This document shows, in pieces, positions 3,565 through 56,129 of a stretch of DNA of 56,129 bases. Each line of letters opens with the position of its first letter. Position 1 is the first letter of the stretch. The translations under genes were made by a program, and so were the position numbers. The stretch spans positions 1-56,129 of the forward strand of contig QZJU01000008.1 in NCBI GenBank assembly GCA_003597955.1. Direction: 5' to 3'. A model generated the notes under the pieces. The model worked only from the letters and a program-made list of their open reading frames with translations. It ran no database searches and was not told where the DNA came from. Source of the DNA: Candidatus Parcubacteria bacterium. GTDB taxonomy: Bacteria > Patescibacteriota > Patescibacteriia > PEXW01.

Positions 3565-4410
3565 TTTACCTTTATCGAAACTCTGGTGGCTTTGTCGGTC
3601 TTGATGATTTTGCTTGGTTTGATTTTGGCCACCTACCGTCGGGGAAATGAGGACAGTATTTTGAACCGAGAAATTACATTACTAATGAGCCGATTTAGAT
3701 TAGCTCAAGAACAAACCGCTGGCGGAACGGTTGGTCGATATTGCGAACAGCCATATTACGGCATTTCCTGCCAAACCGACTCGAATTGTCCTGGGGGGTA
3801 TGCGTGTCGAAGCGCTGACGCCCCAAAAGGCGGGTATGTGATGGCTTTTAATTGCGATCCAAAACCAGAATCCGGAGCGCAATGGGGTTGGGGTTTTGAT
3901 TACCCTAAAATTGGTGATGTAAGCAAAGCTAATACAACCCCGTATTTCCTTTTTGGGGAAAGAGTTTCTTGTGACAGTAATTGTTATTCTGGTAATGATA
4001 ATAATTGGGTTTATGGGTTGGCTGACGAAAAAACTTCGCTTTTTAGTCGTATTGTGGGCGATACGGTGGTAAGCACTTTTCAACTTGACAACCGCGCGAT
4101 TTTTAAGGATTTGCAAATAATTTCTTCAAACCAGGAAAAGTATTGGTGTAATTCCGCACTGCCTTGGCGAGTCGTGCCCGTACCCAGTGATTATCCCTTG
4201 ATCGCCACAGTTCGTTTTAAACCGTCCGATGGTCGGCAGATTGAAATAACCAATAACGTTAGCATAAAGACTCCTAGCGGTTATGATTGGACAAAAGTTG
4301 AAGTCATGTTCGGCTTGCGGAGCCGAAATACAGATTGTCAGGTTGTCGCTTTTAGCCGCGAAGGCGTAGTTAGCAAGTATCTTGATACCAATTGCAGTTT
4401 TGCAAATTAA
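3493..4410 (+). CDS. Large prepilin-like protein, paralog 1 (long leader, G|FTFIE)
   Basis: MTMDFHPKKFPPQKESPLLKSGAG|FTFIETLVALSVLMILLGL. Track start is TTG 3493; an in-frame ATG lies at 3499. N- and C-terminal thirds are shared with ORFs 4832 and 6288. Confidence 0.7.
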   Translation: MTMDFHPKKFPPQKESPLLKSGAGFTFIETLVALSVLMILLGLILATYRRGNEDSILNREITLLMSRFRLAQEQTAGGTVGRYCEQPYYGISCQTDSNCPGGYACRSADAPKGGYVMAFNCDPKPESGAQWGWGFDYPKIGDVSKANTTPYFLFGERVSCDSNCYSGNDNNWVYGLADEKTSLFSRIVGDTVVSTFQLDNRAIFKDLQIISSNQEKYWCNSALPWRVVPVPSDYPLIATVRFKPSDGRQIEITNNVSIKTPSGYDWTKVEVMFGLRSRNTDCQVVAFSREGVVSKYLDTNCSFAN

Positions 4411-46457: not shown

Positions 46458-47522
46458 TTAAACCCGATTTTTATTATTCATCATCGTCCAGTAAGCGTCA
46501 ATTTCTTCGGACGAGAGGAATTTCCGCATGGCTTGCTGGAAAAGCGTCCATTTGGTGCCGGGTCGCCAAGCCCTATCCGGTCCGCCTGGGGTTTTTTTGG
46601 CTTGCCAACGGTTGTGGAAAAATCGAAAATCCCGTCCGTCCATCTTGACCAGGGCTTTAATCGCGTTAGCCGGTAAGTCTCCGGACCGGGCTTTGACTTT
46701 TTGCAGCTGGGTGCTTTTTTTCCAGATATTTTCCGGCGCCAGATTGGTGGTGAACTGGACATCAATTTGTTTTTTGGCCGAAGGGTCTTCCTGGACTTCT
46801 AAGCCCTGCAAATGATGGACATTGGCGATGATAAAGTCGATTTTGTCCTGGACATCCTGCTTGACATCAGCGTCGTAAACCTTGAAAAAGTCGTGATTGA
46901 TGGAGATTTTTTTGAAGAAATTTTTTACCGCCCGTTCAATTTGCAAGCCAAAGTGTTCTTGGCCGGTTTCCAAGTCATTCAGGATCCTTTGGTAAGTTTC
47001 CCTAGTTAGCTTGTCCAATTTGGGGTTTTCCGTTTCCTGTAGCAAAAGCGCCTGGTTGTATGCCTGCTGCATTTCCCTTTTGGCCTCCGCTTGGAGATAG
47101 GCTGATTTAACTTCTTTGGAAACCCGCTTGTCAAAATAATATTTCAGGCCCCATTCGCCGTCCGTCAGCAAGTCGCCTAAAGTAAGTTCCTGCCTTTTGC
47201 CTTGCTCGTCAACATAAAAAAGCTGGTTCCCGCTTTGTTCAATTTTCCAAGAGTTCGCCGCGTTTTCCGGCTTAGTTTCCAAGTTTTCCAAATGCTCGCC
47301 TTGAAATTCGGTTTTTTCAAAATCCGTTTTGATTTTGGCCGCCAGGGCTTCCATCTTGGTTTGGGTTTCTGGCGTTAAGTCGAAATCGAGTTTAGGCAAA
47401 GCAAAATCCGTCAAAGCTAAAACTTCCGGCTTTTCTGCCGTTTCGTCCTTATGTACTTCTGTCCGTTCCCCAGTTTCCGGTGCGTCAGGCTGGAACGGGC
47501 GGGTTTCAATCTCCCCAATCAT
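46458..47522 (-). CDS. Hypothetical protein (acidic N-terminal half, basic C-terminus)
   Basis: 354-aa ORF with no motif I can name confidently. DKIDFIIANV...QIDVQFTT is only loosely nuclease-like. Confidence 0.5.
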   Translation of the reverse strand: MIGEIETRPFQPDAPETGERTEVHKDETAEKPEVLALTDFALPKLDFDLTPETQTKMEALAAKIKTDFEKTEFQGEHLENLETKPENAANSWKIEQSGNQLFYVDEQGKRQELTLGDLLTDGEWGLKYYFDKRVSKEVKSAYLQAEAKREMQQAYNQALLLQETENPKLDKLTRETYQRILNDLETGQEHFGLQIERAVKNFFKKISINHDFFKVYDADVKQDVQDKIDFIIANVHHLQGLEVQEDPSAKKQIDVQFTTNLAPENIWKKSTQLQKVKARSGDLPANAIKALVKMDGRDFRFFHNRWQAKKTPGGPDRAWRPGTKWTLFQQAMRKFLSSEEIDAYWTMMNNKNRV

Positions 47523-47532
47523 AAGCGCAGGG

Positions 47533-48138
47533 TTAAATGCTCCGGCGGCCTTTTAAGGCATCGCCCAGGGTGACCTCATCAGCGTATTCCAAATCCGCGC
47601 CCAAAGGCAAGCCCCGGGCCAGCCGAGAAAGCTTGATTTTCAGTGGCCGCAGCAATTTGGCCAGATACAGAATGGTTGTCTCGCCTTCAACATCTGGATT
47701 GAGCGCAAAAATAACCTCGACGATCGGCGGTTCGGAATTTTTGATCCGATTCAGAAGCCCATTGATGTTCAGGTCATCGGCCGTCACGCCGGTGAGAGGG
47801 TTTAAAACCCCGCCCAAGACATGGTAAACGCCCCAAAATTCCCCGGTGCGCTCGATAGCGGCCAAGTCTTGAGTTTCAGCCACCACACCAATAAGAGTGC
47901 GATCGCGCTTTTCATCCAGGCAGATTTTGCAGGGCGAGCTGGAATTCCATTGCCCGCAAACTGCGCATTTCTTAATTCGGTCTTTGACCTCCAAAATGTG
48001 CTTGGTCAGCAATTTGCGGTCATCGTCCCGCATTTTAACAATGTGAAACGCCAGCCGCTCCGCGGATTTTGGGCCAATGCCCGGCAAGCGGTTGAGAGCG
48101 TCAATAAGATTTTGCAAACTCTCGGCGTAGAGTGCCAT
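47533..48138 (-). CDS. recR: Recombination protein RecR
   Basis: HhH LPGIGPKSAERLAFH, Cys4 CAVCGQWNSSSPCKIC, Toprim region. Confidence 0.95.
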   Translation of the reverse strand: MALYAESLQNLIDALNRLPGIGPKSAERLAFHIVKMRDDDRKLLTKHILEVKDRIKKCAVCGQWNSSSPCKICLDEKRDRTLIGVVAETQDLAAIERTGEFWGVYHVLGGVLNPLTGVTADDLNINGLLNRIKNSEPPIVEVIFALNPDVEGETTILYLAKLLRPLKIKLSRLARGLPLGADLEYADEVTLGDALKGRRSI

Positions 48139-48147
48139 TTTTTGATT

Positions 48148-48441
48148 TTAGCCCAAATTCGGCAAACCGCCCATGTCTTTTACCTTTTTGGCCATTTTAT
48201 GCTGGGCTTTTTTTATGGCGTCATTGACCGCGTCCTGAACGCCCTTTTGCACATCCGCCGCTCGGTTGGGCGAGAGCAAGTCCGGATCGATGAAAACAGT
48301 TTGCACGCTTTGGTTGCCGTCCATGGAAATTTTTACTTTGCCCCAGGCGCCGCTGCCTTCCACATTTTCCTCTTTGAGGGCGCTTTGGATTTTTTTGGCT
48401 TGGTCGCGGTAGTCTTTGATTTGCTTGAGTTTTTCGAACAT
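48148..48441 (-). CDS. ybaB: YbaB/EbfC family nucleoid-associated protein
   Basis: 97 aa, ...GSGAWGKVKISMDGNQSV..., located upstream of recR as in many bacteria. Confidence 0.85.
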   Translation of the reverse strand: MFEKLKQIKDYRDQAKKIQSALKEENVEGSGAWGKVKISMDGNQSVQTVFIDPDLLSPNRAADVQKGVQDAVNDAIKKAQHKMAKKVKDMGGLPNLG

Positions 48442-48468
48442 ATTTTATTGGAATTAAGATTAAAGTTT

Positions 48469-49851
48469 TTAAACCGGGGGCGGGCCGACTACGCTTTCGT
48501 CGGCCTTGCTTTCAAATCTGACCTTGTTTTCGTTGAAAATTAATTCCACATGGCCGGTCGGGCCGTTGCGGTGCTTGGCAATGTGGATTTCCGCCAGATT
48601 TTTTTTCAAAGGGTCGATGTCGCGGTCATACATAGCCGGTCGGTAAATAAACATCACCACATCCGCGTCTTGCTCAATAGAGCCGGATTCCCGCAAATCC
48701 GCCAATTGCGGAATCTTTCTTTCCCGGTTTTCTACCGCCCGGGATAATTGCGACAGGGCAATAACAGGGATATTTAATTCCCGTGCGATGGCTTTTAAGC
48801 CACGGGTGATTTCCGCCACTTCCTGCACCCGGTTTTCCACGCCATAGCGGCCTTCCATCAATTGCAGATAGTCGACGACGATCATGCCTAATCCATGTTC
48901 GGCCTGCAAGCGCCGGGCTTTGGTGCGCATCATCATGACATTGCTAGTGGCGGAATCATCGATGTAAATCGGGGCCTCTGAAAGAATGCCCATGGCATGG
49001 CCGATCTTTGGGAAATCATTGTCTTCCGGATTGTCTGAGAGACGGCCTGTGCGCATTTTCCATAAATCCACGCCGGCTTCGGCGCAGAGCATGCGGTCGA
49101 CCAGCTGTTCTTTGGACATTTCCAGCGAAAACAAACCAACGGGTACACCGGTGTTAATTGCCGCGTGCCGGGCGAAATCCAGAGCCAAAGAAGTTTTGCC
49201 CATGCTAGGCCGAGCGGCGACGATTACCAAATCGCTTTTTTGAAAACCGGCCAGAAGTTTATCTATGTCTGGAAAGCCGCTGGTGATGCCCCGGAGCTTG
49301 CCCGCGCCTTTGTGTAATTCGTCGATGCGGTCGAAAGCTTCGGAAAGTACAGAACGAATAGGAATGAAATTTTGCTTTAAGTATCTTTGGGAGACCGAAA
49401 AGATTGATTGTTCGGCCGCGTCCAATAGCTGCTCCACATCCTCGGCTTCCTGGTAGCCGATGCTGGTAATTTCCGAAGCGGCGCTTAAAAGCCGGCGCAA
49501 GGTGGCTTTTCTTTGCACGATGTTGGCATAATTCACCACATTACTGGCCGTTGGCACGACATTCGCCAGCGAAGTCAATGCGCTTAAGCCCCCGATTTTT
49601 TCCAAGATTTTCCTTTCTTCCAGCCGATTGGATAGACTGACTACATCGATCGGTTCGTGCCGCTCATACAAGTCTTGCATGGCTTCGAATATCCAGCCAT
49701 GGACATCTCGGTAAAAGTCTTCCGGCCGCAAAATATCTGCGACTTTGATAATTGCGTCTTTGTCGATTAAAAGCGAGCCCAGTAGGGCTTGTTCGGCCTC
49801 CAAGTTTTGCGGCGGAATTTTGTCGGTTGGTTTTAATTGGCCGTCTGACAT
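48469..49851 (-). CDS. dnaB: Replicative DNA helicase DnaB
   Basis: PPQNLEAEQALLGSLL, Walker A ARPSMGKTSLAL, IVVDYLQLM, SQLSR. Confidence 0.96.
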   Translation of the reverse strand: MSDGQLKPTDKIPPQNLEAEQALLGSLLIDKDAIIKVADILRPEDFYRDVHGWIFEAMQDLYERHEPIDVVSLSNRLEERKILEKIGGLSALTSLANVVPTASNVVNYANIVQRKATLRRLLSAASEITSIGYQEAEDVEQLLDAAEQSIFSVSQRYLKQNFIPIRSVLSEAFDRIDELHKGAGKLRGITSGFPDIDKLLAGFQKSDLVIVAARPSMGKTSLALDFARHAAINTGVPVGLFSLEMSKEQLVDRMLCAEAGVDLWKMRTGRLSDNPEDNDFPKIGHAMGILSEAPIYIDDSATSNVMMMRTKARRLQAEHGLGMIVVDYLQLMEGRYGVENRVQEVAEITRGLKAIARELNIPVIALSQLSRAVENRERKIPQLADLRESGSIEQDADVVMFIYRPAMYDRDIDPLKKNLAEIHIAKHRNGPTGHVELIFNENKVRFESKADESVVGPPPV

Positions 49852-49949
49852 AGGGTCTAATTATCTTACCTGGCTTAGATAGTCAAAGCAAGGTGGTTAA
49901 ATCCCCAGTTTTTCCACTTTTTTCAACATTTATGATATGCTGATTTTCT

Positions 49950-50483
49950 ATGTCAGACTCGCAACAAGTATTAGTTGTTTTGGATGTGGAAACCACCGGT
50001 TTAAGACCCGAAGAAGGGCACGAAATTATCGAGGTGGCCGTCCAAAAGATTCAGGACCGGCAGGTTATTGGGGAATTTGTAAGCCTGGTAGCCACGAACC
50101 GGATCATTGACGCAGAAACCGAGAAAGTTCACGGCATCACCAATGCTTTATTAGCCGTCGAAGGCAAACCGGCTTCTGAAGTTTTTCCTAAATTGATAGA
50201 GTTTATCGGTACGGCGCCGATTGTCGGGCATAATGTCGGTTTTGACATGGCCTTTATCAATTCGCATTTAAAAAGGTTGGATTTGCCGATTCTGGACAAC
50301 CCGCTATTAGACACCATTGCGCAAGCGAAAAGATTGCTGCTGATCCCTAGCTACAGTTTGGAAAAAGTCGCGGCGTACTTCAAAATTCCCCAGCCCCAGG
50401 CGCATCGCGCCAAAGCGGATGTAGAAACCACGCGTGAAGTGTTTTGGAAATTAGTCGAGCGGGCTAAGCAGCAGAAAGCCTAA
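49950..50483 (+). CDS. DnaQ-like 3'-5' exonuclease (DEDDh)
   Basis: Exo motifs VVLDVETTGL, GHNVGFDMAFI, HRAKADVETT. Confidence 0.88.
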   Translation: MSDSQQVLVVLDVETTGLRPEEGHEIIEVAVQKIQDRQVIGEFVSLVATNRIIDAETEKVHGITNALLAVEGKPASEVFPKLIEFIGTAPIVGHNVGFDMAFINSHLKRLDLPILDNPLLDTIAQAKRLLLIPSYSLEKVAAYFKIPQPQAHRAKADVETTREVFWKLVERAKQQKA

Positions 50484-50796
50484 AAGCGTTTGCGGGTGGC
50501 CATATAGACGACCCCCAAAACCACGACCAATAAAATTACGACGAATAATTGACCTCCGGACATATAAACTTAGTATATCTTAAACCAGGAGTGATAGGAA
50601 TATTGCGCTTGAAATTTTTTTAAATATGAGGCACAATAGCGTCATTAAGAATTGCCATGCGTTTATAGTCCCGAACCCGCCATACGGGGGGCCGCGGATC
50701 CTCGTTCCGCCGCAGAGCGGCGAGAACGGGACTCAATTCAGAGATTTACACTTAAAAACTGTTCAGATTAAAATTATAAGCCAAAGCAGAATTTAC

Positions 50797-50872
50797 GCGC
50801 CTATAGCTCAATTGGCAGAGCAGGGGCCTTTTAAGCCCAAGGTTGGAGGTTCGATTCCTCCTGGGCGCACCA
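50797..50872 (+). tRNA. tRNA-Lys (anticodon UUU), CCA encoded
   Basis: GCGCCTA-TA-GCTC-AATTGGCA-GAGC-A-GGGGC-CTTTTAA-GCCCA-AGGTT-GGAGG-TTCGATT-CCTCC-TGGGCGC-A-CCA. One G-A mismatch at 27:43. Confidence 0.9.
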
Positions 50873-52309
50873 ACTAGAAAATGAGGCGCTTTGCGCCGCC
50901 ACAGCCCAGCCCAAATGGGCTTCAAATCGCAGCGTTTTGCCTTTCAAAAGAAAGTTCGAGCCGATATTTTTCATTGAATTCTTAATTTCCAAGAGGTCGC
51001 GCGAGATTGCGACTTTTTTGGCTTGCTTGCTTAGTAAAATGAATTCTCGCATGGGTTCGAGCCAAACCAAACCCTCGCCCCGGAGTTGAGCGAATTTTTC
51101 CTCAATTCTCACTTTTTCATTTACTAGGGTGTCTTTCTTGGATAAATACTCCGAAGTGGAAATAGATCGCTCTAGCTTTGCGTCTAAAAGATTGTCCAAT
51201 TTCTTTTCAACAACGATCAACGTATCTTTTTTCTCTTGGGCGAGGGCTTTAGTGGTTTGCTCATTACGTTCTTTTTCCGTATCTAGCTTCGCCAGCATTT
51301 TATCAGCCCAATCATCACGAATAGAATGGCTGGTTAAAGTCGCCCTCATTTGCTCAACCAGTGCTTCTTCACGCAAGAATTTAGTTTCGCATTTGCCTTT
51401 CTTCTTAGTGCAACGGTAGTACGTATGTCCTTTCTGGCTTTCAGCTGTAATGTAGCAGCCGCAAGAAGCGCATTTCATCAAACCAAGAAAGGCAAAGTTG
51501 TGTTTCTTTACTTCCCTCGCGCGACCTCGTTTACGCATCATCGCCCGGGCCTTATCAAATAAATCTCTAGAAATGAATGTGTCGTGGCTTCCTTGGTACG
51601 TTTCATCCCAGTAAGTGAACACGCCGACGTAAAAGGTATTTTTCAGCATGTTTTGCATCATACTGGCGGAAAACGGATGCCCCCAGTGGCTTTTAATTTT
51701 GGCTTTGGTATTGCACCATTTGGCAAGCGCATCTAGTGTCCAGTCGCCGGTTAAGTACATAGCGAAAATTTTCTTCACTATCTTGGCTTCTCGCTTTTCA
51801 ATCAGCACTTTTCTGCTCTTCGGGTCATTAAAGTAACCAAGTGGTGCCATAGACGGCCACTCACCACGGCGTAGTTTTTGTCTCAAGCCCCGTTTTACGT
51901 TTTCCGAGAGATTGTCCACGTAGTACTTGGATTGCCCAAAGGCAATATTCAGCATGAATTTCCCTTGCGGCGTGTTCTCAAACCAAAATGTGGGGAATTT
52001 CAGGTTTTGAATTTTATCCCTATCGGTCAGGTAAATGACCTGCCCACCGTCTACGGGGTTTCTAGCTAATCTGTCGGGGTGCCAGGCGATGATGCCATTG
52101 GCTTCGCCTTTTTCAATTCTCTTGAGCATCTCATTGAAGATTTTTCGCCCGGGTTCTTTGGCAGTTTTTGCCTCGCAGAGCGAGGCGACGATTTCAAGTT
52201 TTTCTTTGGCGGCAAATTCTTTTAATTCATCAATTTGAGATTCAATACTTAAAACCTGACGATCCTCCTCGTCAGTGGATTTTCTGGCGTAGAGAAAATA
52301 TTTATCCAT
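50831..52309 (-). CDS. Large serine recombinase 1 (resolvase/invertase catalytic domain + recombinase + zinc-ribbon domains)
   Basis: N-terminal YARKSTDEEDRQVLSIESQ (catalytic Ser context), DRLARNP, Cys cluster CASCGC...YYRCTKKKGKC, coiled-coil tail. The last 13 codons are antisense to tRNA-Lys. Confidence 0.88.
   Translation of the reverse strand: MDKYFLYARKSTDEEDRQVLSIESQIDELKEFAAKEKLEIVASLCEAKTAKEPGRKIFNEMLKRIEKGEANGIIAWHPDRLARNPVDGGQVIYLTDRDKIQNLKFPTFWFENTPQGKFMLNIAFGQSKYYVDNLSENVKRGLRQKLRRGEWPSMAPLGYFNDPKSRKVLIEKREAKIVKKIFAMYLTGDWTLDALAKWCNTKAKIKSHWGHPFSASMMQNMLKNTFYVGVFTYWDETYQGSHDTFISRDLFDKARAMMRKRGRAREVKKHNFAFLGLMKCASCGCYITAESQKGHTYYRCTKKKGKCETKFLREEALVEQMRATLTSHSIRDDWADKMLAKLDTEKERNEQTTKALAQEKKDTLIVVEKKLDNLLDAKLERSISTSEYLSKKDTLVNEKVRIEEKFAQLRGEGLVWLEPMREFILLSKQAKKVAISRDLLEIKNSMKNIGSNFLLKGKTLRFEAHLGWAVAAQSASFSSWCAQEESNLQPWA
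50867..50945. repeat. IR-A left copy (79 bp, begins with the tRNA 3' end GCACCA)
   Basis: Base-for-base reverse complement of 52376-52454, checked by hand. Confidence 0.9.
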
Positions 52310-52327
52310 ACCTTTGTAAAGTTAATG

Positions 52328-52358
52328 ATAAAGAGGGGGGAAAGTGCGCTTTTGGCCC
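52328..52358 (-). promoter_or_regulatory. Shared upstream motif, copy upstream of recombinase 1
   Basis: On the minus strand reads GGGCCAAAAGCGCACTTTCCCCCCTCTTTAT, 19-49 nt upstream of the recombinase 1 ATG. Near-identical motif at 52594-52623 upstream of the XRE gene. Confidence 0.5.
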
Positions 52359-52375
52359 CCTGCGCTAACGCGCAG

Positions 52376-52454
52376 GAAAGGCAAAACGCTGCGATTTGAA
52401 GCCCATTTGGGCTGGGCTGTGGCGGCGCAAAGCGCCTCATTTTCTAGTTGGTGC
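52376..52454. repeat. IR-A right copy (79 bp, ends with TGGTGC)
   Basis: Perfect reverse complement of 50867-50945. Confidence 0.9.
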
Positions 52455-52542
52455 AGTCTTTTTGAGAAAATACGAACCGAGTTTGCGGGCGGCGGCTCGC
52501 GCGCGGAGGAGACCCAGCCGCCGCCCGCTGCCGCGCCGTTTT
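52449..52542. repeat. IR-B left copy (94 bp, begins with TGGTGC; contains a 12-bp GC hairpin)
   Basis: Perfect reverse complement of 54606-54699. Overlaps IR-A by the 6-bp core. Confidence 0.9.
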
Positions 52543-52593
52543 AAAAACTGCCAAAGAACCCTAGAGGAAAAATATCGGCTCTCACTTTCTTTT

Positions 52594-52623
52594 GGGCCAA
52601 AAGCGCACTTCCCCCTTCTTTGT
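52594..52623 (+). promoter_or_regulatory. Shared upstream motif, copy upstream of the XRE gene
   Basis: GGGCCAAAAGCGCACTTCCCCCTTCTTTGT, 63-92 nt upstream of ATG 52686. Confidence 0.5.
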
Positions 52624-52685
52624 TGATTAGTCCACTTTGGACTATTCCATACTGGACTATATCATGAATATGTGGAACAATCAAT

Positions 52686-52907
52686 ATGCAAGACGATATA
52701 TACTCAAAAGAGCATAAAAAACTCATAGTACGCATAATACAAGCCCGAAAAGAGGCAGGATTAAGCCAGGTGGAAGCTGCTAAGCGACTTGGGCGATCCC
52801 AGTCTTATATTTCTAAAATGGAAGTGGGGCAGAGAAAAATTGACGTTATTGAGTTGAAAAAAATCGCAAGAATTTACGACAAACCGCTTAATTATTTTAT
52901 TAACTAA
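52686..52907 (+). CDS. XRE-family helix-turn-helix transcriptional regulator
   Basis: ARKEAGLSQVEAAKRLGRSQSYISKMEVGQRKIDVIELKKIA, a typical HTH_3 domain. Confidence 0.88.
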   Translation: MQDDIYSKEHKKLIVRIIQARKEAGLSQVEAAKRLGRSQSYISKMEVGQRKIDVIELKKIARIYDKPLNYFIN

Positions 52908-52911
52908 ACCT

Positions 52912-53727
52912 ATGAGCGACACAACGAAAACGAAGGCTTGTCCACGGTGCAAAACACAAATCGATGCAAAAGCATCTAAATGCCCAAATTGCCACAGCGA
53001 TCTACGCAACTGGTTTATACGTCATCCGATTTGGACAATCCTTATTCTACTTGTAGCAATCGGGATAATTAGTAGCGCTGTGAGCAACAGTGAAAATACT
53101 AACCAAGCTACTTCTAATAACACCGCCACATCCATAAACGAAAATGCAGCTCAGACTAATACTAATAGTGATGAGCAGGCAACCGATATTAGCCAATCCG
53201 TCAATGAAAGTGGAACAACAGGGGAAGTCATCAAAACAAATTCTACGACCTCAGCTAACACTAATCAAAGTCCAACACCAGAGCCAACATCAAGCGTAAC
53301 AGTTAGCCAAAAAAATGCCGTTGCACAAGCAAAATCCTACTTAAGCACTTCTGCATTTTCTCACGATGGGTTGGTTGCTCAATTGGAGTATGAAAAGTTT
53401 TCGCACGCTGACGCTGTTTATGGTGCTGATAACTCTGGCGCTGACTGGAACGTACAAGCCGTTAAAAGTGCAAAATCGTATTTAGCTACTTCTGCTTTTT
53501 CACTTGGTGGTTTAATAAACCAGTTGAAATACGATAAATTCACTCAAGCGCAGGCAGAACATGGGGCTAATAACTCTAATGCTGATTGGAATGAGCAAGC
53601 TGTTAAATCGGCAAAATCGTATATGGAAACATCAAACTTTTCACGCGATAGTTTAATTGCGCAGCTAAAGTACGACCAATTTACTCAAGCCCAAGCAGAA
53701 TATGGAGCTGGTGCAGTTGGACTATGA
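52912..53727 (+). CDS. Membrane-anchored protein with N-terminal zinc ribbon and three Ltp-like (phage superinfection-exclusion lipoprotein family) repeats
   Basis: CPRCKTQIDAKASKCPNCH, TM IWTILILLVAIGIISSAV, Asn/Thr/Ser-rich linker, then three copies of A(V/Q)KSAKSYL.TSAFS..GL..QL.Y.KF..A.A.YGA.NS.ADWN. Confidence 0.75.
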   Translation: MSDTTKTKACPRCKTQIDAKASKCPNCHSDLRNWFIRHPIWTILILLVAIGIISSAVSNSENTNQATSNNTATSINENAAQTNTNSDEQATDISQSVNESGTTGEVIKTNSTTSANTNQSPTPEPTSSVTVSQKNAVAQAKSYLSTSAFSHDGLVAQLEYEKFSHADAVYGADNSGADWNVQAVKSAKSYLATSAFSLGGLINQLKYDKFTQAQAEHGANNSNADWNEQAVKSAKSYMETSNFSRDSLIAQLKYDQFTQAQAEYGAGAVGL

Positions 53728-53805
53728 CAGTTACGGAAAAGTTGAATTAGATTTTTCACAAAAGAAAACACCAGAGACAACGATCACGTTCAATAAAATA
53801 TTAGT

Positions 53806-54522
53806 ATGGGATTTTTGAGAATATTTAGCAAAAGTAAGGATAAGCGAAAAGCAGAATGCCCTTATTGCAGTAGTGCCCTCGAAAAACCGCCAGCTAGAAA
53901 GACGAAATGCCCGCACTGCGGGAAATATATTTTTGTTCGGACACATCCAAAGAATCGTGAGCGTGTCGTCGTAACCGAAGAACAAGCAGCCGCAATAGAT
54001 AATGAGTGGCTCGTACAGCAAACCGCCAGTGACCCGTCATTGGGCGGCGAGGAAGAATTTTACCAAGAAAAGGAGATTTTACAGAAACGTTTTGGGAAAG
54101 TGCCATCCGTAAGTGATATTAAGTGGGGGCTGCTAAATAAACGGGCCGGAGAGGCAATGAAAAAATCAGATTTCTCAGCCCTGTCAGGTATTTATTTTCA
54201 AATGGCACTTCAGAAACACGAGGAGGGAAAGGACTGTCACATGGAGCAAGCCCAAGCCCAAAAAATGCAACTCATGGCTTTAAAACAAAATGATGTAGTC
54301 GGCCGTGTTGAGATATTTTCTAAGGATGGCTGTGAAGAATGTCAAAAACTGAATGGGAAGAAATTTAGTGTTGAAGAAGCGCTAAAATATAATCCCCTCC
54401 CTGTAATCCACTGCACTCATAAGTTAAATAAAAATGCTCCGAGTAGTTGGTGTCGCTGTACTTATTTACCAATCGTTTCAGATGATGTTGATTTGAAAGG
54501 AGCTTGGTTGGGCGATAAATAG
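53806..54522 (+). CDS. Hypothetical protein with N-terminal zinc ribbon and C-terminal Cys motif resembling the phage Mu gpF / SPP1 gp7 head-morphogenesis domain
   Basis: CPYCSS...CPHCGKYIFV; C-terminus DGCEECQKLNGKKFSVEEA...PLPVIHCTHKLN...WCRCTY. The domain assignment is from memory only. Confidence 0.45.
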   Translation: MGFLRIFSKSKDKRKAECPYCSSALEKPPARKTKCPHCGKYIFVRTHPKNRERVVVTEEQAAAIDNEWLVQQTASDPSLGGEEEFYQEKEILQKRFGKVPSVSDIKWGLLNKRAGEAMKKSDFSALSGIYFQMALQKHEEGKDCHMEQAQAQKMQLMALKQNDVVGRVEIFSKDGCEECQKLNGKKFSVEEALKYNPLPVIHCTHKLNKNAPSSWCRCTYLPIVSDDVDLKGAWLGDK

Positions 54523-54603
54523 AGAAGAATTTGCCGCCAAAGAGGATAATTTGATAAAATTATCTTCAGCGCCGCAAGAGCGGCGCAGAAAAACTTGAAA
54601 TCG

Positions 54604-56129
54604 TCAAAACGGCGCGGCAGCGGGCGGCGGCTGGGTCTCCTCCGCGCGCGAGCCGCCGCCCGCAAACTCGGTTCGTATTTTCTCAAAAAGACTGCACCAT
54701 AGACGAAACGCAGGCTGGAGATTGTCATTTCGACGCACGTCTATTAGCGAAATCGAGGGTTCGATCATTAGCTTGTGAACCTCAGGACTGACAATCGCAC
54801 TTCGGATCAACTGAAACGGTTTGACGGCTTCAATATTAAGTATTCCATCCCTCAGAGTGAGGTTCGAACCTACGGAATGCAGAATCTCGCGTTTGTCTCG
54901 GTCGGTTCCCTTCTGGAATCTCCTGACGGCAACGCCGGCAAATTCAAAGATATTGGCACATCGCTTTCCTACTTCGGAAGAGTGGTGTTTCCTCTTGGCA
55001 ACCGATTCCTGCAGACCAATACGCTCATCCTCCAGTTCGCGCTTCTTCTCAATATATTCTTCGTCTGAAAGCAGTCCCCGGATTCTTAGATTCGTCAGTT
55101 CGGATAACTCTTTGGCACAAGCCCCAAGCCGTCGCTCAATGGATAAAGCCTGTTCCGCTTCCAATACCTTGTCTTTATCATCAAGCGATTTCAGATGACG
55201 GAGGGTCCAACCCACCAAAACTTTGGGAATGGAGATTTGTTCCAGGAATTGCACGATCTGTCGCTCCAATTTGTTCAATTCAATCACCCTTTGACCGCAC
55301 TTGATTCCTGGTCTTCTCTTTGTGCAATGGTAATAGACATATTGGTGCCCCTGACGGTTCACTTTGTGCTCTGCAGTCACCGACGCACCGCATTCTCCAC
55401 ACTTAATTAGACCGGTGAAAGCGAATTCGCGGTGGCGAGGGCGCGGACTGGAATTATTGGTCAAAAGTCTCTGAACGAGGTCGAATTCAGATTTGCTCAC
55501 CATCGCTTCATGCGCACCTCGACAACTCAGACCCCGACGGACGATGAGACCGTAATAAAAGGGATTCCGGAATAGATCATAAATAGCGGAAAGGGCCATG
55601 GGACCGCCGCCCTGCCGGCGAAAGACACGAGTCCTTAGGCCCCATTCCTTCGTTGCGATTGCAAGAATCCTCGGTGGCGTGATATTGCCAGTCAACATCA
55701 TATCCCACATCTTGCGAATAAGCCGGAACCGTTCCGGGTCTTTAACGATTGTCCGGCTGTTACGGTCATTCAAATATCCGATCGGCGGGACTCCCGGCAG
55801 CCAGCCGGCCTCCAGCTTCGCCCTCAATCCCCGTTTCACGTTATCCGAAAGATCATCGACATATTTTTTCGCCATGCCGAATTCCAGTTGCATCCAGAAC
55901 TTGTCGTTACTGGTATTGGAAAAAGAGCGCTGGGGAGTATGGATCGCCTTAAGCTTGCCTTCTTCCATCGCCCAGATAATCGCACCGCCGTCGACGGGAT
56001 TCCGAGCCAGCCGGTCGAGTTTCCAACAGAGTGTCAAGACCCCCAAAATTAAGACACTTTTTCGACGAGTGGGAGCAGCCGTTGGGCAAACAATACCGGC
56101 GGCATTTTCAGTACCGAATGAATACGGGT
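54604..56129 (-). CDS. Large serine recombinase 2 (5' end probably beyond window edge)
   Basis: Collinear with recombinase 1 from LDRLARNPVDGG onward; Cys cluster CGECGA...YYHCTKRRPGIKC. The frame stays open upstream of track start 56046 to the window end, and the catalytic Ser region is not in the window. Confidence 0.85.
   Translation of the reverse strand, partial: PYSFGTENAAGIVCPTAAPTRRKSVLILGVLTLCWKLDRLARNPVDGGAIIWAMEEGKLKAIHTPQRSFSNTSNDKFWMQLEFGMAKKYVDDLSDNVKRGLRAKLEAGWLPGVPPIGYLNDRNSRTIVKDPERFRLIRKMWDMMLTGNITPPRILAIATKEWGLRTRVFRRQGGGPMALSAIYDLFRNPFYYGLIVRRGLSCRGAHEAMVSKSEFDLVQRLLTNNSSPRPRHREFAFTGLIKCGECGASVTAEHKVNRQGHQYVYYHCTKRRPGIKCGQRVIELNKLERQIVQFLEQISIPKVLVGWTLRHLKSLDDKDKVLEAEQALSIERRLGACAKELSELTNLRIRGLLSDEEYIEKKRELEDERIGLQESVAKRKHHSSEVGKRCANIFEFAGVAVRRFQKGTDRDKREILHSVGSNLTLRDGILNIEAVKPFQLIRSAIVSPEVHKLMIEPSISLIDVRRNDNLQPAFRLWCSLFEKIRTEFAGGGSRAEETQPPPAAAPF
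54606..54699. repeat. IR-B right copy (94 bp, ends with GCACCA)
   Basis: Perfect reverse complement of 52449-52542. Encodes the last 31 codons of recombinase 2. Confidence 0.9.

Follow-up and report, generated by a model that had tools for sequence, protein, structure and literature searches.

A probable integrative element of a large serine recombinase at a tRNA-Lys gene, framed by two abutting inverted repeats, and its relatives in Patescibacteria

Large serine integrases have sites that differ in their spacing. The motifs for the second DNA-binding domain lie 5 bp nearer the centre in the bacterial attachment site (attB) than in the phage attachment site (attP), this offset is what tells the two apart, and in the model for these enzymes the hybrid sites are locked and do not pair with attP (PMC11722253). 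Islands of the Islander type in tRNA and tmRNA genes have been attributed to tyrosine integrases (PMC4383910), serine-recombinase mobilisable elements have been described as inserting within protein genes, and the elements of TnpX and TndX excise to circles with no need for a directionality factor (PMC5704250). Here we analyse an island beside a tRNA-Lys gene of a Candidatus Parcubacteria bacterium, at the end of contig QZJU01000008.1. The window, the whole stretch of DNA analysed, comprises this source contig, which is complete at 56,129 bp. We read positions 50873-54699 as one integrative element (element 1), inserted at the tRNA-Lys 3' end by its own large serine recombinase (recombinase 1), and assign this reading a probability of roughly 0.72. 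Next to it lies part of a second serine recombinase gene (recombinase 2), within which the contig ends.

The island is built from three junctions (J1 to J3) and two perfect inverted repeats. The arms of a 79-nt repeat lie at 50867-50945 and 52376-52454 and those of a 94-nt repeat at 52449-52542 and 54606-54699, both pairs being 100% complementary. The remaining inverted matches in the region are all at most 29 nt long, and perfect repeats of 79 and 94 nt within 5 kb cannot have arisen by chance. The two repeats overlap solely in the hexamer TGGTGC at 52449-52454, the complement of which, GCACCA, stands at 50867-50872 and 54694-54699. The target is a tRNA-Lys(UUU) gene found by ARAGORN at 50797..50872 (+), apparently derived from attB, whose T-loop GTTCG (50849-50853) supplies a B'-type half-site motif. 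At J1 the core GCACCA (50867..50872), equal to tRNA positions 71-76, joins the tRNA to arm X (50873..50945, -), a putative P-type half-site with an extension that encodes the last 24 pre-core residues of recombinase 1; this is a hybrid tRNA/X site of B'-P type. J2 (52376..52542, +) consists of X' (52376-52448), the core TGGTGC and Y (52455-52542), the last of which carries a mimic of the tRNA T-loop, CGAAC, at 52473-52477 together with a G+C-rich hairpin. J3 (54606..54699, -) is made up of Y' (54606-54693) and the core GCACCA (54694-54699), is of P'-B type and would form the right end of element 1.

The earlier note on this DNA, written from the letters alone, had described the three junctions, both perfect repeats and a 6-bp core common to the tRNA end and the junctions, and every coordinate was reproduced when we recomputed it. 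It had also seen that both recombinase frames run through the repeats, recombinase 1 into antisense tRNA and recombinase 2 into Y', that a plus-strand open reading frame (ORF) at 52344-52544 joins the X' and Y tails in one frame across J2, and that the J1 and J3 cores are direct repeats delimiting an excisable unit. All of this stands: the 66-aa plus-strand ORF reads through X'-core-Y without a change of frame, and the J1 and J3 cores form a direct repeat that delimits a 3,827-bp unit, 50873-54699.

Recombinase 1 (50831..52309, -) is a full-length large serine recombinase of 492 aa. Pfam places a Resolvase domain (PF00239) at residues 5-151 (E = 4.3e-22), a Recombinase domain (PF07508) at 173-261 and a Zn_ribbon_recom domain (PF13408) at 274-318. 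The motif YARKSTDEE is evident in the sequence at residues 7-15, and the catalytic role of its serine is presumed from family membership. The protein matches, distantly, the SPbeta integrase structures 9dxd and 9dxh. Recombinase 1 thus presents the catalytic, recombinase and zinc-ribbon domains of a large serine integrase, alongside the 5-bp half-site offset set out below. Its upstream region (52310..52375, -) contains a conserved promoter-like block at 52337-52358, a copy of which is also present in relatives, and a small palindrome at 52360-52375.

This layout recurs widely. We fetched 80 loci whose recombinases are 48-91% identical to recombinase 1, mostly from metagenome-assembled genomes (MAGs) of Patescibacteria, and the scripted analysis covered 83 loci in total. 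A repeat of at least 50 nt flanks the recombinase in 74 of the 83, its copies usually 97-100% identical, and 41 of these also have an abutting second repeat of at least 60 nt, which encloses 583-5,235 bp of cargo. A tRNA gene lies on the opposite strand at the recombinase 3' end in 60 loci; 13 tRNA types serve as targets across the family, and the repeat arm overlaps the tRNA end by exactly 6 nt in 31/45 loci (range 4-10). The elements measure 2.4-7 kb. The double inverted-repeat layout is a hallmark of a large element family in bacteria of the candidate phyla radiation (CPR).

The nature of the three junctions emerges from their half-sites. With all junctions written in the reading direction of the recombinase, arm Y after the core always has (A/T)(T/C)CGAAC, like the antisense tRNA T-loop TTCGAAC. 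Wherever the pentamer CGAAC is present on both sides (36/36 loci), its distance from the junction is greater by exactly 5 nt on the Y side, usually +19 as against +14 in the tRNA arm. Taken with the published rule for attP and attB, this offset makes Y a P-type half-site and the tRNA arm a B-type one, and from these types it follows that J2 is an intact attP whilst J1 and J3 are hybrid integration products. On this sequence evidence J1, J2 and J3 are the predicted attR, attP and attL of a large serine integrase.

The constraint on these arms is uneven. Over 34 nt, arm Y carries 37.4 bits of information, the tRNA arm 28.5 and X 26.9, and no second conserved half-site was found in the flank beyond J3, which holds 8.2 bits over the same length. 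Because so little information resides in that flank, the enzyme appears to read its target through the tRNA, and it seems to recognise it almost wholly in this way. The DNA beyond J3 in relatives often resembles a tRNA terminator when inspected by eye. Arm X has a family motif of its own, TTGAC/TTGCA-(A/T)TTTCC. The three junctions share 4-6 nt (tRNA positions 71-74/76), and from the symmetry of X and Y we infer a crossover at about tRNA positions 71-72: centred there, the two arms make an imperfect palindrome in a consensus reading, each showing GAAAT at +10 to +14. Since the junction hexamer corresponds to tRNA positions 71-76, element 1 is predicted to rebuild the discriminator base and the CCA of the tRNA-Lys. 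The CCA does not seem to be encoded by the native tRNA gene in many loci; all three junctions then share just 4 nt, and the element appears to provide the discriminator base and CCA. Two other ideas about the repeats were considered. Annealing of the two repeats into one duplex attP, by analogy with CTX phage or integron attC sites, was set aside, since chromosome ends capped by hairpins would result if a serine recombinase cut such a stem. A tRNA-like RNA fold of Y' was rejected, its putative T-stem being unpaired.

Since the core falls within the 3'-terminal part of the recombinase ORF, whichever DNA is joined there sets the residues that follow. It had been proposed that recombination at the core alters a recombinase C-terminus, and the position of the site within the ORF predicts just that. 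In the window the last 11 codons of recombinase 1, beyond the core, are antisense tRNA-Lys. Across the family the recombinase frame remains open through Y for a median of 27 codons, versus 4 and 3 in the other frames, and encodes a conserved peptide ending ...(I/V)RT(E/H/D)F..., while the tail through the tRNA is variable with a median of 18 codons. The open Y frame fits either a native Y-encoded tail that is replaced upon integration or selection on the small J2 ORF. When 5.8 billion proteins were searched with the Y-tail peptide of a large subfamily, no full-length recombinase with a Y tail was found, and 55/55 matches were stand-alone J2 ORFs of 32-75 aa. The 66-aa ORF of the window, used as the query, matched only itself and a counterpart in an element of the L003 type, described below. 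Such stand-alone ORFs are annotated as proteins of 32-75 aa on dozens of public contigs; they repeat the C-terminal residues of the recombinase and then continue into the Y tail.

The left boundary of element 1 is marked by strain variation. L088, a Logan contig of a different run, matches window positions 46710-50873 with 99.93% identity and diverges completely 1 nt past the tRNA end, with no recombinase nearby, from which it follows that everything from 50873 on is strain-variable DNA. The locus thus shows both a rebuilt tRNA 3' end and a presence/absence polymorphism at that very point, as in tRNA islands. The L088 junction sequence had no match in the genome collection. At 4164-4240 of that contig, some 55 nt past the tRNA-Lys, there is a 13-nt inverted copy of the tRNA 3' part (CCCAGGAGGAATC) with a T-run, which could be the scar of an earlier element or an unusual terminator.

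Beyond J3 lies what is left of recombinase 2 (54604..56031, -), truncated and probably the remnant of an older element from a sister family. The two recombinases share 32% identity in an alignment that begins only at the position matching residue 74 of recombinase 1, so that recombinase 2 has no catalytic N-terminus within the window. At its other end, the Y' of element 1 now supplies the last 30 residues. Relatives of recombinase 2 (35-57% identical) end inside tRNA genes in 7/10 loci, and flanking repeats of at least 30 nt were found in none of the 10. Members of this sister family (L091-L098) end inside Ser, Leu, Asp and Gln tRNA genes. The notion of two nested tRNA-targeting elements, raised at the outset, is therefore half right: recombinase 2 belongs to a separate, older and truncated element, whilst the X-bounded and Y-bounded segments are not two elements and together make up one. 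In the last 98 nt of the window (56032-56129), a stretch of uncertain origin, the recombinase-2 frame stays open, yet the sequence is unrelated to serine recombinases and has no match within the window, L088 or the fetched loci.

These observations can be ordered into a history. An element of the sister family, carrying recombinase 2, would first have integrated at the tRNA-Lys. Element 1 would then have integrated at the rebuilt tRNA end, its Y'-encoded tail replacing the last residues of recombinase 2. Joining J3 to J1 would close an excised circle with two identical 167-bp X'-core-Y segments in inverted orientation, each bearing an attP, that separate a 1,430-bp recombinase segment from a 2,063-bp cargo segment. 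Divergent promoters would flank one attP copy and convergent gene ends the other. Integration through the convergent-end copy would split it into J1 and J3 and leave the other copy behind as J2, and gene conversion or a copying step would keep the two repeat copies identical. Homogenisation of this kind is supported by the arms themselves: the X arms of the window and of the relative L003 differ at 7/79 positions, whereas within each element the copies are identical at 79/79, and arms that diverge between elements while staying identical within them indicate that the copies are being homogenised.

The cargo of element 1 is an operon of three genes (52686..54522, +). They encode an XRE-family helix-turn-helix (HTH) protein (52686-52907, +; Pfam HTH_3), a protein with three Ltp repeats (52912-53727, +; Pfam Lipoprotein_Ltp) and a 238-aa protein that contains CxxC pairs but matches no family (53806-54522, +). 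Lipoprotein_Ltp is a Pfam family of phage surface lipoproteins, and Ltp of phage TP-J34 is said to prevent phage DNA injection. The cargo slot opens with a small XRE-type gene in one clade and holds a single unrelated gene in others. Relatives carry restriction-modification genes among other cargo, and the slots sampled contained an EcoRI-type methylase, a GmrSD/HNH nuclease, an N6/N4 DNA methylase, Mrr, a radical SAM enzyme, an SRPBCC protein, an FAD oxidoreductase and a SAM methyltransferase. No candidate directionality factor was identified, many relatives holding only one unrelated cargo gene, and no replication gene was found among the cargo in a Pfam scan of the window and in the sampled relatives. 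Three very short contigs (L050, of 1,471 bp at 116x coverage, L016 and L075) consist of the recombinase segment plus partial repeat arms. One of these is covered far more deeply than a sister MAG's contigs in the same study, which could reflect several copies per genome, free circles or repeat collapse.

The same repeats could instead belong to a double inverton or shufflon, in which the 1.4-kb recombinase segment and the 2.1-kb cargo segment flip reversibly, altering the recombinase C-terminus and the direction of cargo expression. This was one of two explanations first offered for the island, and the two perfect inverted-repeat pairs with a common recombinase core and the open X'-core-Y frame lend it some credit. 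Such flips should show in the orientations of related loci. With the B and C-terminal-fragment copies described below as proximal markers and the A copy as the distal one, the cargo points the same way relative to J2 in 40/41 loci. The recombinase reads into the tRNA in 60 loci, and the tRNA lies on the promoter side in 2. One of the exceptions is instructive: in L085 a tRNA-Asn is joined to the promoter-side arm, whereas L066, 91% identical in nucleotide sequence, has the usual 3'-end arrangement (L085 1870-2110 compared with L066 1-230 and 1600-1800; different hosts). This pair indicates that the tRNA can be joined at either site copy. It might also be taken as a flip of the recombinase segment, but the two tRNA-Asn genes are only 87% identical and separate integrations into the different hosts could have produced it.

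Further points bear on flipping from both sides. Many contigs break at or beside a repeat (L004, L016, L065, L075, L086/L087), as flipping might cause; breaks are, however, expected wherever a repeat exceeds k, and in L016 the overlaps of 55 nt agree with a final k of 55. The transposon-type enzymes TnpX and TndX work without a directionality factor (PMC5704250), yet J1 and J3 as hybrid sites should be locked and not pair with attP (PMC11722253). Frequent flipping should have left both states in public assemblies, and the 0/55 database matches with a Y tail on a full-length recombinase agree with the orientation counts in speaking against it. The locus and its relatives show a single prevailing orientation, a large-serine-recombinase architecture and half-sites that differ among the three sites, none of which is typical of an inverton. 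We consider an inverton unlikely: the comparative loci do not support routine flipping, although flipping at a low level may occur.

Two kinds of unusual locus were seen in the same comparison. L081 (5780-7600) has a recombinase between tRNA-type junctions on both sides, with arms 81% identical and no Y arms or cargo; a complete tRNA-Ala(CGC) lies on the promoter side, and a tRNA-Ala 3' fragment followed by a complete tRNA-Ala(TGC) on the 3' side. It looks like the decayed product of an internal site that recombined with a second tRNA. In L037 (7430-7529) and L060 (5680-5750) the DNA joined to the 3' end of the recombinase is not a tRNA but a Y-like half-site of another sequence type, with CGAAC at the attP-type distance; these elements may have inserted into the site of another element.

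The outer ends of the Y arms hold a feature that had escaped notice. Four pieces of the recombinase-1 gene and its promoter are copied there: block B (gene nt about 135-155), a C-terminal fragment (nt about 1332-1359), the promoter block and block A (nt about 85-117). B, the C-terminal fragment and the promoter block stand at one Y arm and A at the other, in an order and spacing that are constant in nearly all 41 loci. In the window the copies beside Y (52543..52615, +) comprise B at 52543-52571, the C-terminal fragment at 52567-52594 and the promoter block at 52594-52615. The block-A copy beside Y' (54525..54605, +) is split into halves at 54525-54543 and 54587-54605. Between them lies a 43-nt insert (54544-54586) with the palindrome GCGCCGC AAGA GCGGCGC, and inserts of about 53-83 nt occur at the same place in several relatives.

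In the live gene, A and B flank a hairpin (block A - hairpin - B, 52141..52221, -; codons about 30-56). The hairpin is a 17-nt palindrome (52170-52186, codons 42-47) with a 7-bp stem, and in 62 sequences it shows compensatory changes, some at synonymous positions. Pairing holds in 90% of cells versus 75% in shuffles, with 0/500 shuffles reaching the observed value; both sides have changed in 5/7 pairs, and when the 3' partners are slid by 1-3 columns only 30-44% of cells pair. Synonymous-site entropy is 0.62 in A and 0.59 in the C-terminal fragment against a gene mean of 1.40, and substitutions specific to a lineage occur alike in the fragments and in the live recombinase gene. Candidate explanations for the fragments are accessory binding sites, relics of a nested insertion kept by conversion, and homology arms for cargo exchange.

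The second of these candidates leads to a composite origin, in which a recombinase unit with 167-bp terminal inverted repeats (Y'-core-X ... X'-core-Y) inserted into an older element at the A/B hairpin of the resident recombinase gene, decay then leaving fragments around the cargo slot. Such an insertion would account for the finding that A abuts one Y arm and B the other in nearly all 41 loci while only the 17-nt palindrome lies between them in the live gene. It would also suit the several loci in which the B copy runs in frame into the C-terminal fragment, like an internally deleted gene, and the existence of L081, a recombinase segment with tRNA-type junctions and neither Y arms nor cargo. 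Against this, the layout is invariant across relatives only 48% identical, neither unit has been seen alone in an active form (the L081 arms being only 81% identical), and a serine recombinase acts at the core and not at the outer ends of repeats. The mirrored substitutions, moreover, point to homogenisation or function in the present day and not to a fossil. A composite origin thus strikes us as improbable; it is in any case a statement about origin that is compatible with an element that now moves as one unit.

The architecture is also found independently of this assembly. An identical structure is present in a separate 6,847-bp contig of the same organism (JAGUZB010000003.1 = JGI Ga0394679_059776). 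A closely related element (L003), whose recombinase is 91% identical to recombinase 1, lies in a 209,908-bp MEGAHIT k141 contig with abutting repeats of 95 and 79 nt and adjoins a tRNA-Arg(CCT). The same L003 organism is represented by a 201-kb SPAdes MAG contig (L005/L006) with both abutting repeats, and an L003-type element is split across two JGI contigs (L086/L087) that break at the Y repeat. In a third relative, with a recombinase 83% identical, a 75-nt repeat adjoins a tRNA-Arg(TCG). Exact-pattern searches were sparse in comparison: a 34-nt X/core pattern had no match in the genome collection, a 44-nt Y pattern matched one genome there (L005), and a 41-nt Y pattern matched two metagenome contigs, which are one L003-type element split at Y, and had no match among viral contigs.

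The worry voiced in the earlier note, a fold-back or strand-switch chimera formed by assembly at repeats near k-mer length, can draw on a 79-nt repeat length equal to a MEGAHIT k value, on a contig that stops 1.4 kb beyond the repeats and on two assemblies of the organism that end at most 22 nt apart within recombinase 2, but it is almost certainly wrong and we regard it as excluded for the architecture, because independent MEGAHIT (k141, 210 kb), SPAdes (201 kb) and JGI assemblies agree on the architecture, dozens of unrelated MAGs show the layout with element-specific repeat sequences and different tRNAs, and misassembly could not produce the 5-bp half-site rule and the intact reading frames. 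The two assembly ends close together near 56129 suggest a repeat or structural heterogeneity at that point.

The interpretation of 50873-54699 as one integrative element meets difficulties of its own. No excised circle was found, the genome, metagenome and viral collections having been scanned with Y-containing patterns, and the circle with two attP copies is deduced solely from the integrated form; an empty site with the same downstream DNA was not found either. L088 may not represent a virgin site, given its 13-nt inverted tRNA copy, and the flank beyond J3 is another recombinase gene, so that the right boundary is placed by analogy with relatives. Were each attP copy as usable as the other, one would expect the orientations at similar frequency, yet they stand at 60 to 2. 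The 'native' Y-tailed recombinase predicted for the circle is unobserved, and the Y frame could serve the small ORF instead. Many small relatives lack an obvious directionality factor by which they might excise, and the integrative model leaves the coevolving copies of A, B and the C-terminal fragment unexplained.

One further idea we advance tentatively and think rather unlikely to be correct. The spare inverted attP and its ORF of 65-75 aa might let the element control direction by itself. Sitting at J2, with a locked hybrid site to either side, a dimer of the recombinase could substitute for a directionality factor; alternatively, the small J2 protein, which duplicates the C-terminal tail of the recombinase, could do so. 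Either device would permit the excision of elements too small for a directionality-factor gene. The switch between a Y-encoded tail and one encoded antisense to the tRNA could signal the state of the element to the recombinase, and the A, B and C-terminal-fragment copies together with the hairpin would be accessory sites of the machine. If true, this would represent a new mode of control over the direction of serine integrases, in a family that recognises its targets by the universal tRNA T-arm.

Other consequences follow from the family itself. Large serine integrases are leading tools in genome engineering, though limited by the choice of target and by the need for a separate directionality factor. 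The enzymes described here appear to read a near-universal feature, the tRNA T-arm and acceptor end, and to tolerate any sequence on the other side; their core has been retuned to different tRNAs (13 types), in elements down to about 2.4 kb. The exact 5-bp rule in diverged natural sites provides an independent comparative confirmation of the structural half-site model. Routes of gene exchange in CPR/Patescibacteria are poorly known, and these elements are a widespread carrier of defence and accessory cassettes.

Among described systems, the closest in enzyme and site are the integrases of phiC31, Bxb1, A118/LI and SPbeta (SprA), which share with recombinase 1 the set of resolvase, recombinase and zinc-ribbon domains and a short core. 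These integrases are alike, too, in an attP whose outer motif lies 5 bp farther out and in hybrid attL and attR sites. Unlike those integrases, the present family targets tRNA 3' ends through the universal T-arm with an essentially unconstrained outer attB half, has its attP inside the integrase ORF, keeps a second, inverted attP within the element, and occurs in elements of 2.4-7 kb that often have no candidate directionality factor. TnpX and TndX of Tn4451 and Tn5397 are likewise large serine recombinases on small elements. Tn4451 and Tn5397 use loosely defined targets flanked by a GA dinucleotide, and we know of no long inverted repeats, tRNA target or internal spare site in them.

In choice of target the family resembles the Islander-type and P4-like tyrosine islands, with which it shares insertion at tRNA 3' ends, restoration of the tRNA end, tandem accretion and variable cargo that includes defence genes. 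It differs from them in using a serine recombinase and in a shared identity of 4-6 nt in place of tens of nt; the distal repeat in the window is the 6-nt core only and not a displaced tRNA 3' fragment.

The double inverted-repeat layout has other parallels. The yeast 2-micron plasmid (FLP/FRT), like the inferred circle, consists of two unique segments and two inverted repeats that each contain a target, with the recombinase gene in one segment. FLP is a tyrosine recombinase, and the 2-micron plasmid replicates autonomously and flips for copy amplification; element 1, in contrast, has no replication gene among its cargo and no flipping was detected in the loci compared, so that the likeness is one of layout. 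Hin, Gin and Cin are also serine recombinases that act on inverted sites, and their enhancer in the 5' coding part of the recombinase gene is reminiscent of the A-hairpin-B arrangement at codons 30-56. They are small recombinases with a C-terminal HTH and 26-bp sites and depend on Fis, whereas element 1 has a large serine recombinase, repeats of 79-94 nt and a fixed orientation across genomes. The earlier note knew of no described system in which the recombinase gene is itself the invertible segment and exchanges its own C-terminus; a recombinase gene inside its own invertible segment is known, however, in hin of Salmonella. RecV of C. difficile, which it cited as a serine recombinase, is a tyrosine recombinase.

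The position of the attP in a coding sequence has a parallel in mycobacteriophages, for which Broussard et al. 2013 reportedly described an integration-dependent immunity with attP inside the 3' end of the repressor gene. There, as here, attP lies in an ORF 3' end and integration replaces the C-terminal tail. The mycobacteriophage ORF is that of a repressor and the integrase a tyrosine enzyme; here the ORF is that of the recombinase itself, and any effect of the tail change is putative. Full-text literature searches returned no published description of this architecture, or of the conserved spare attP, the attP within an integrase ORF or the coevolving gene fragments, although one may exist. 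Set beside the known integrases, what seems new in this family is the combination of a tRNA target, a near-unconstrained second attB half, an attP within the integrase ORF, an inverted spare attP and coevolving fragments of the recombinase gene.

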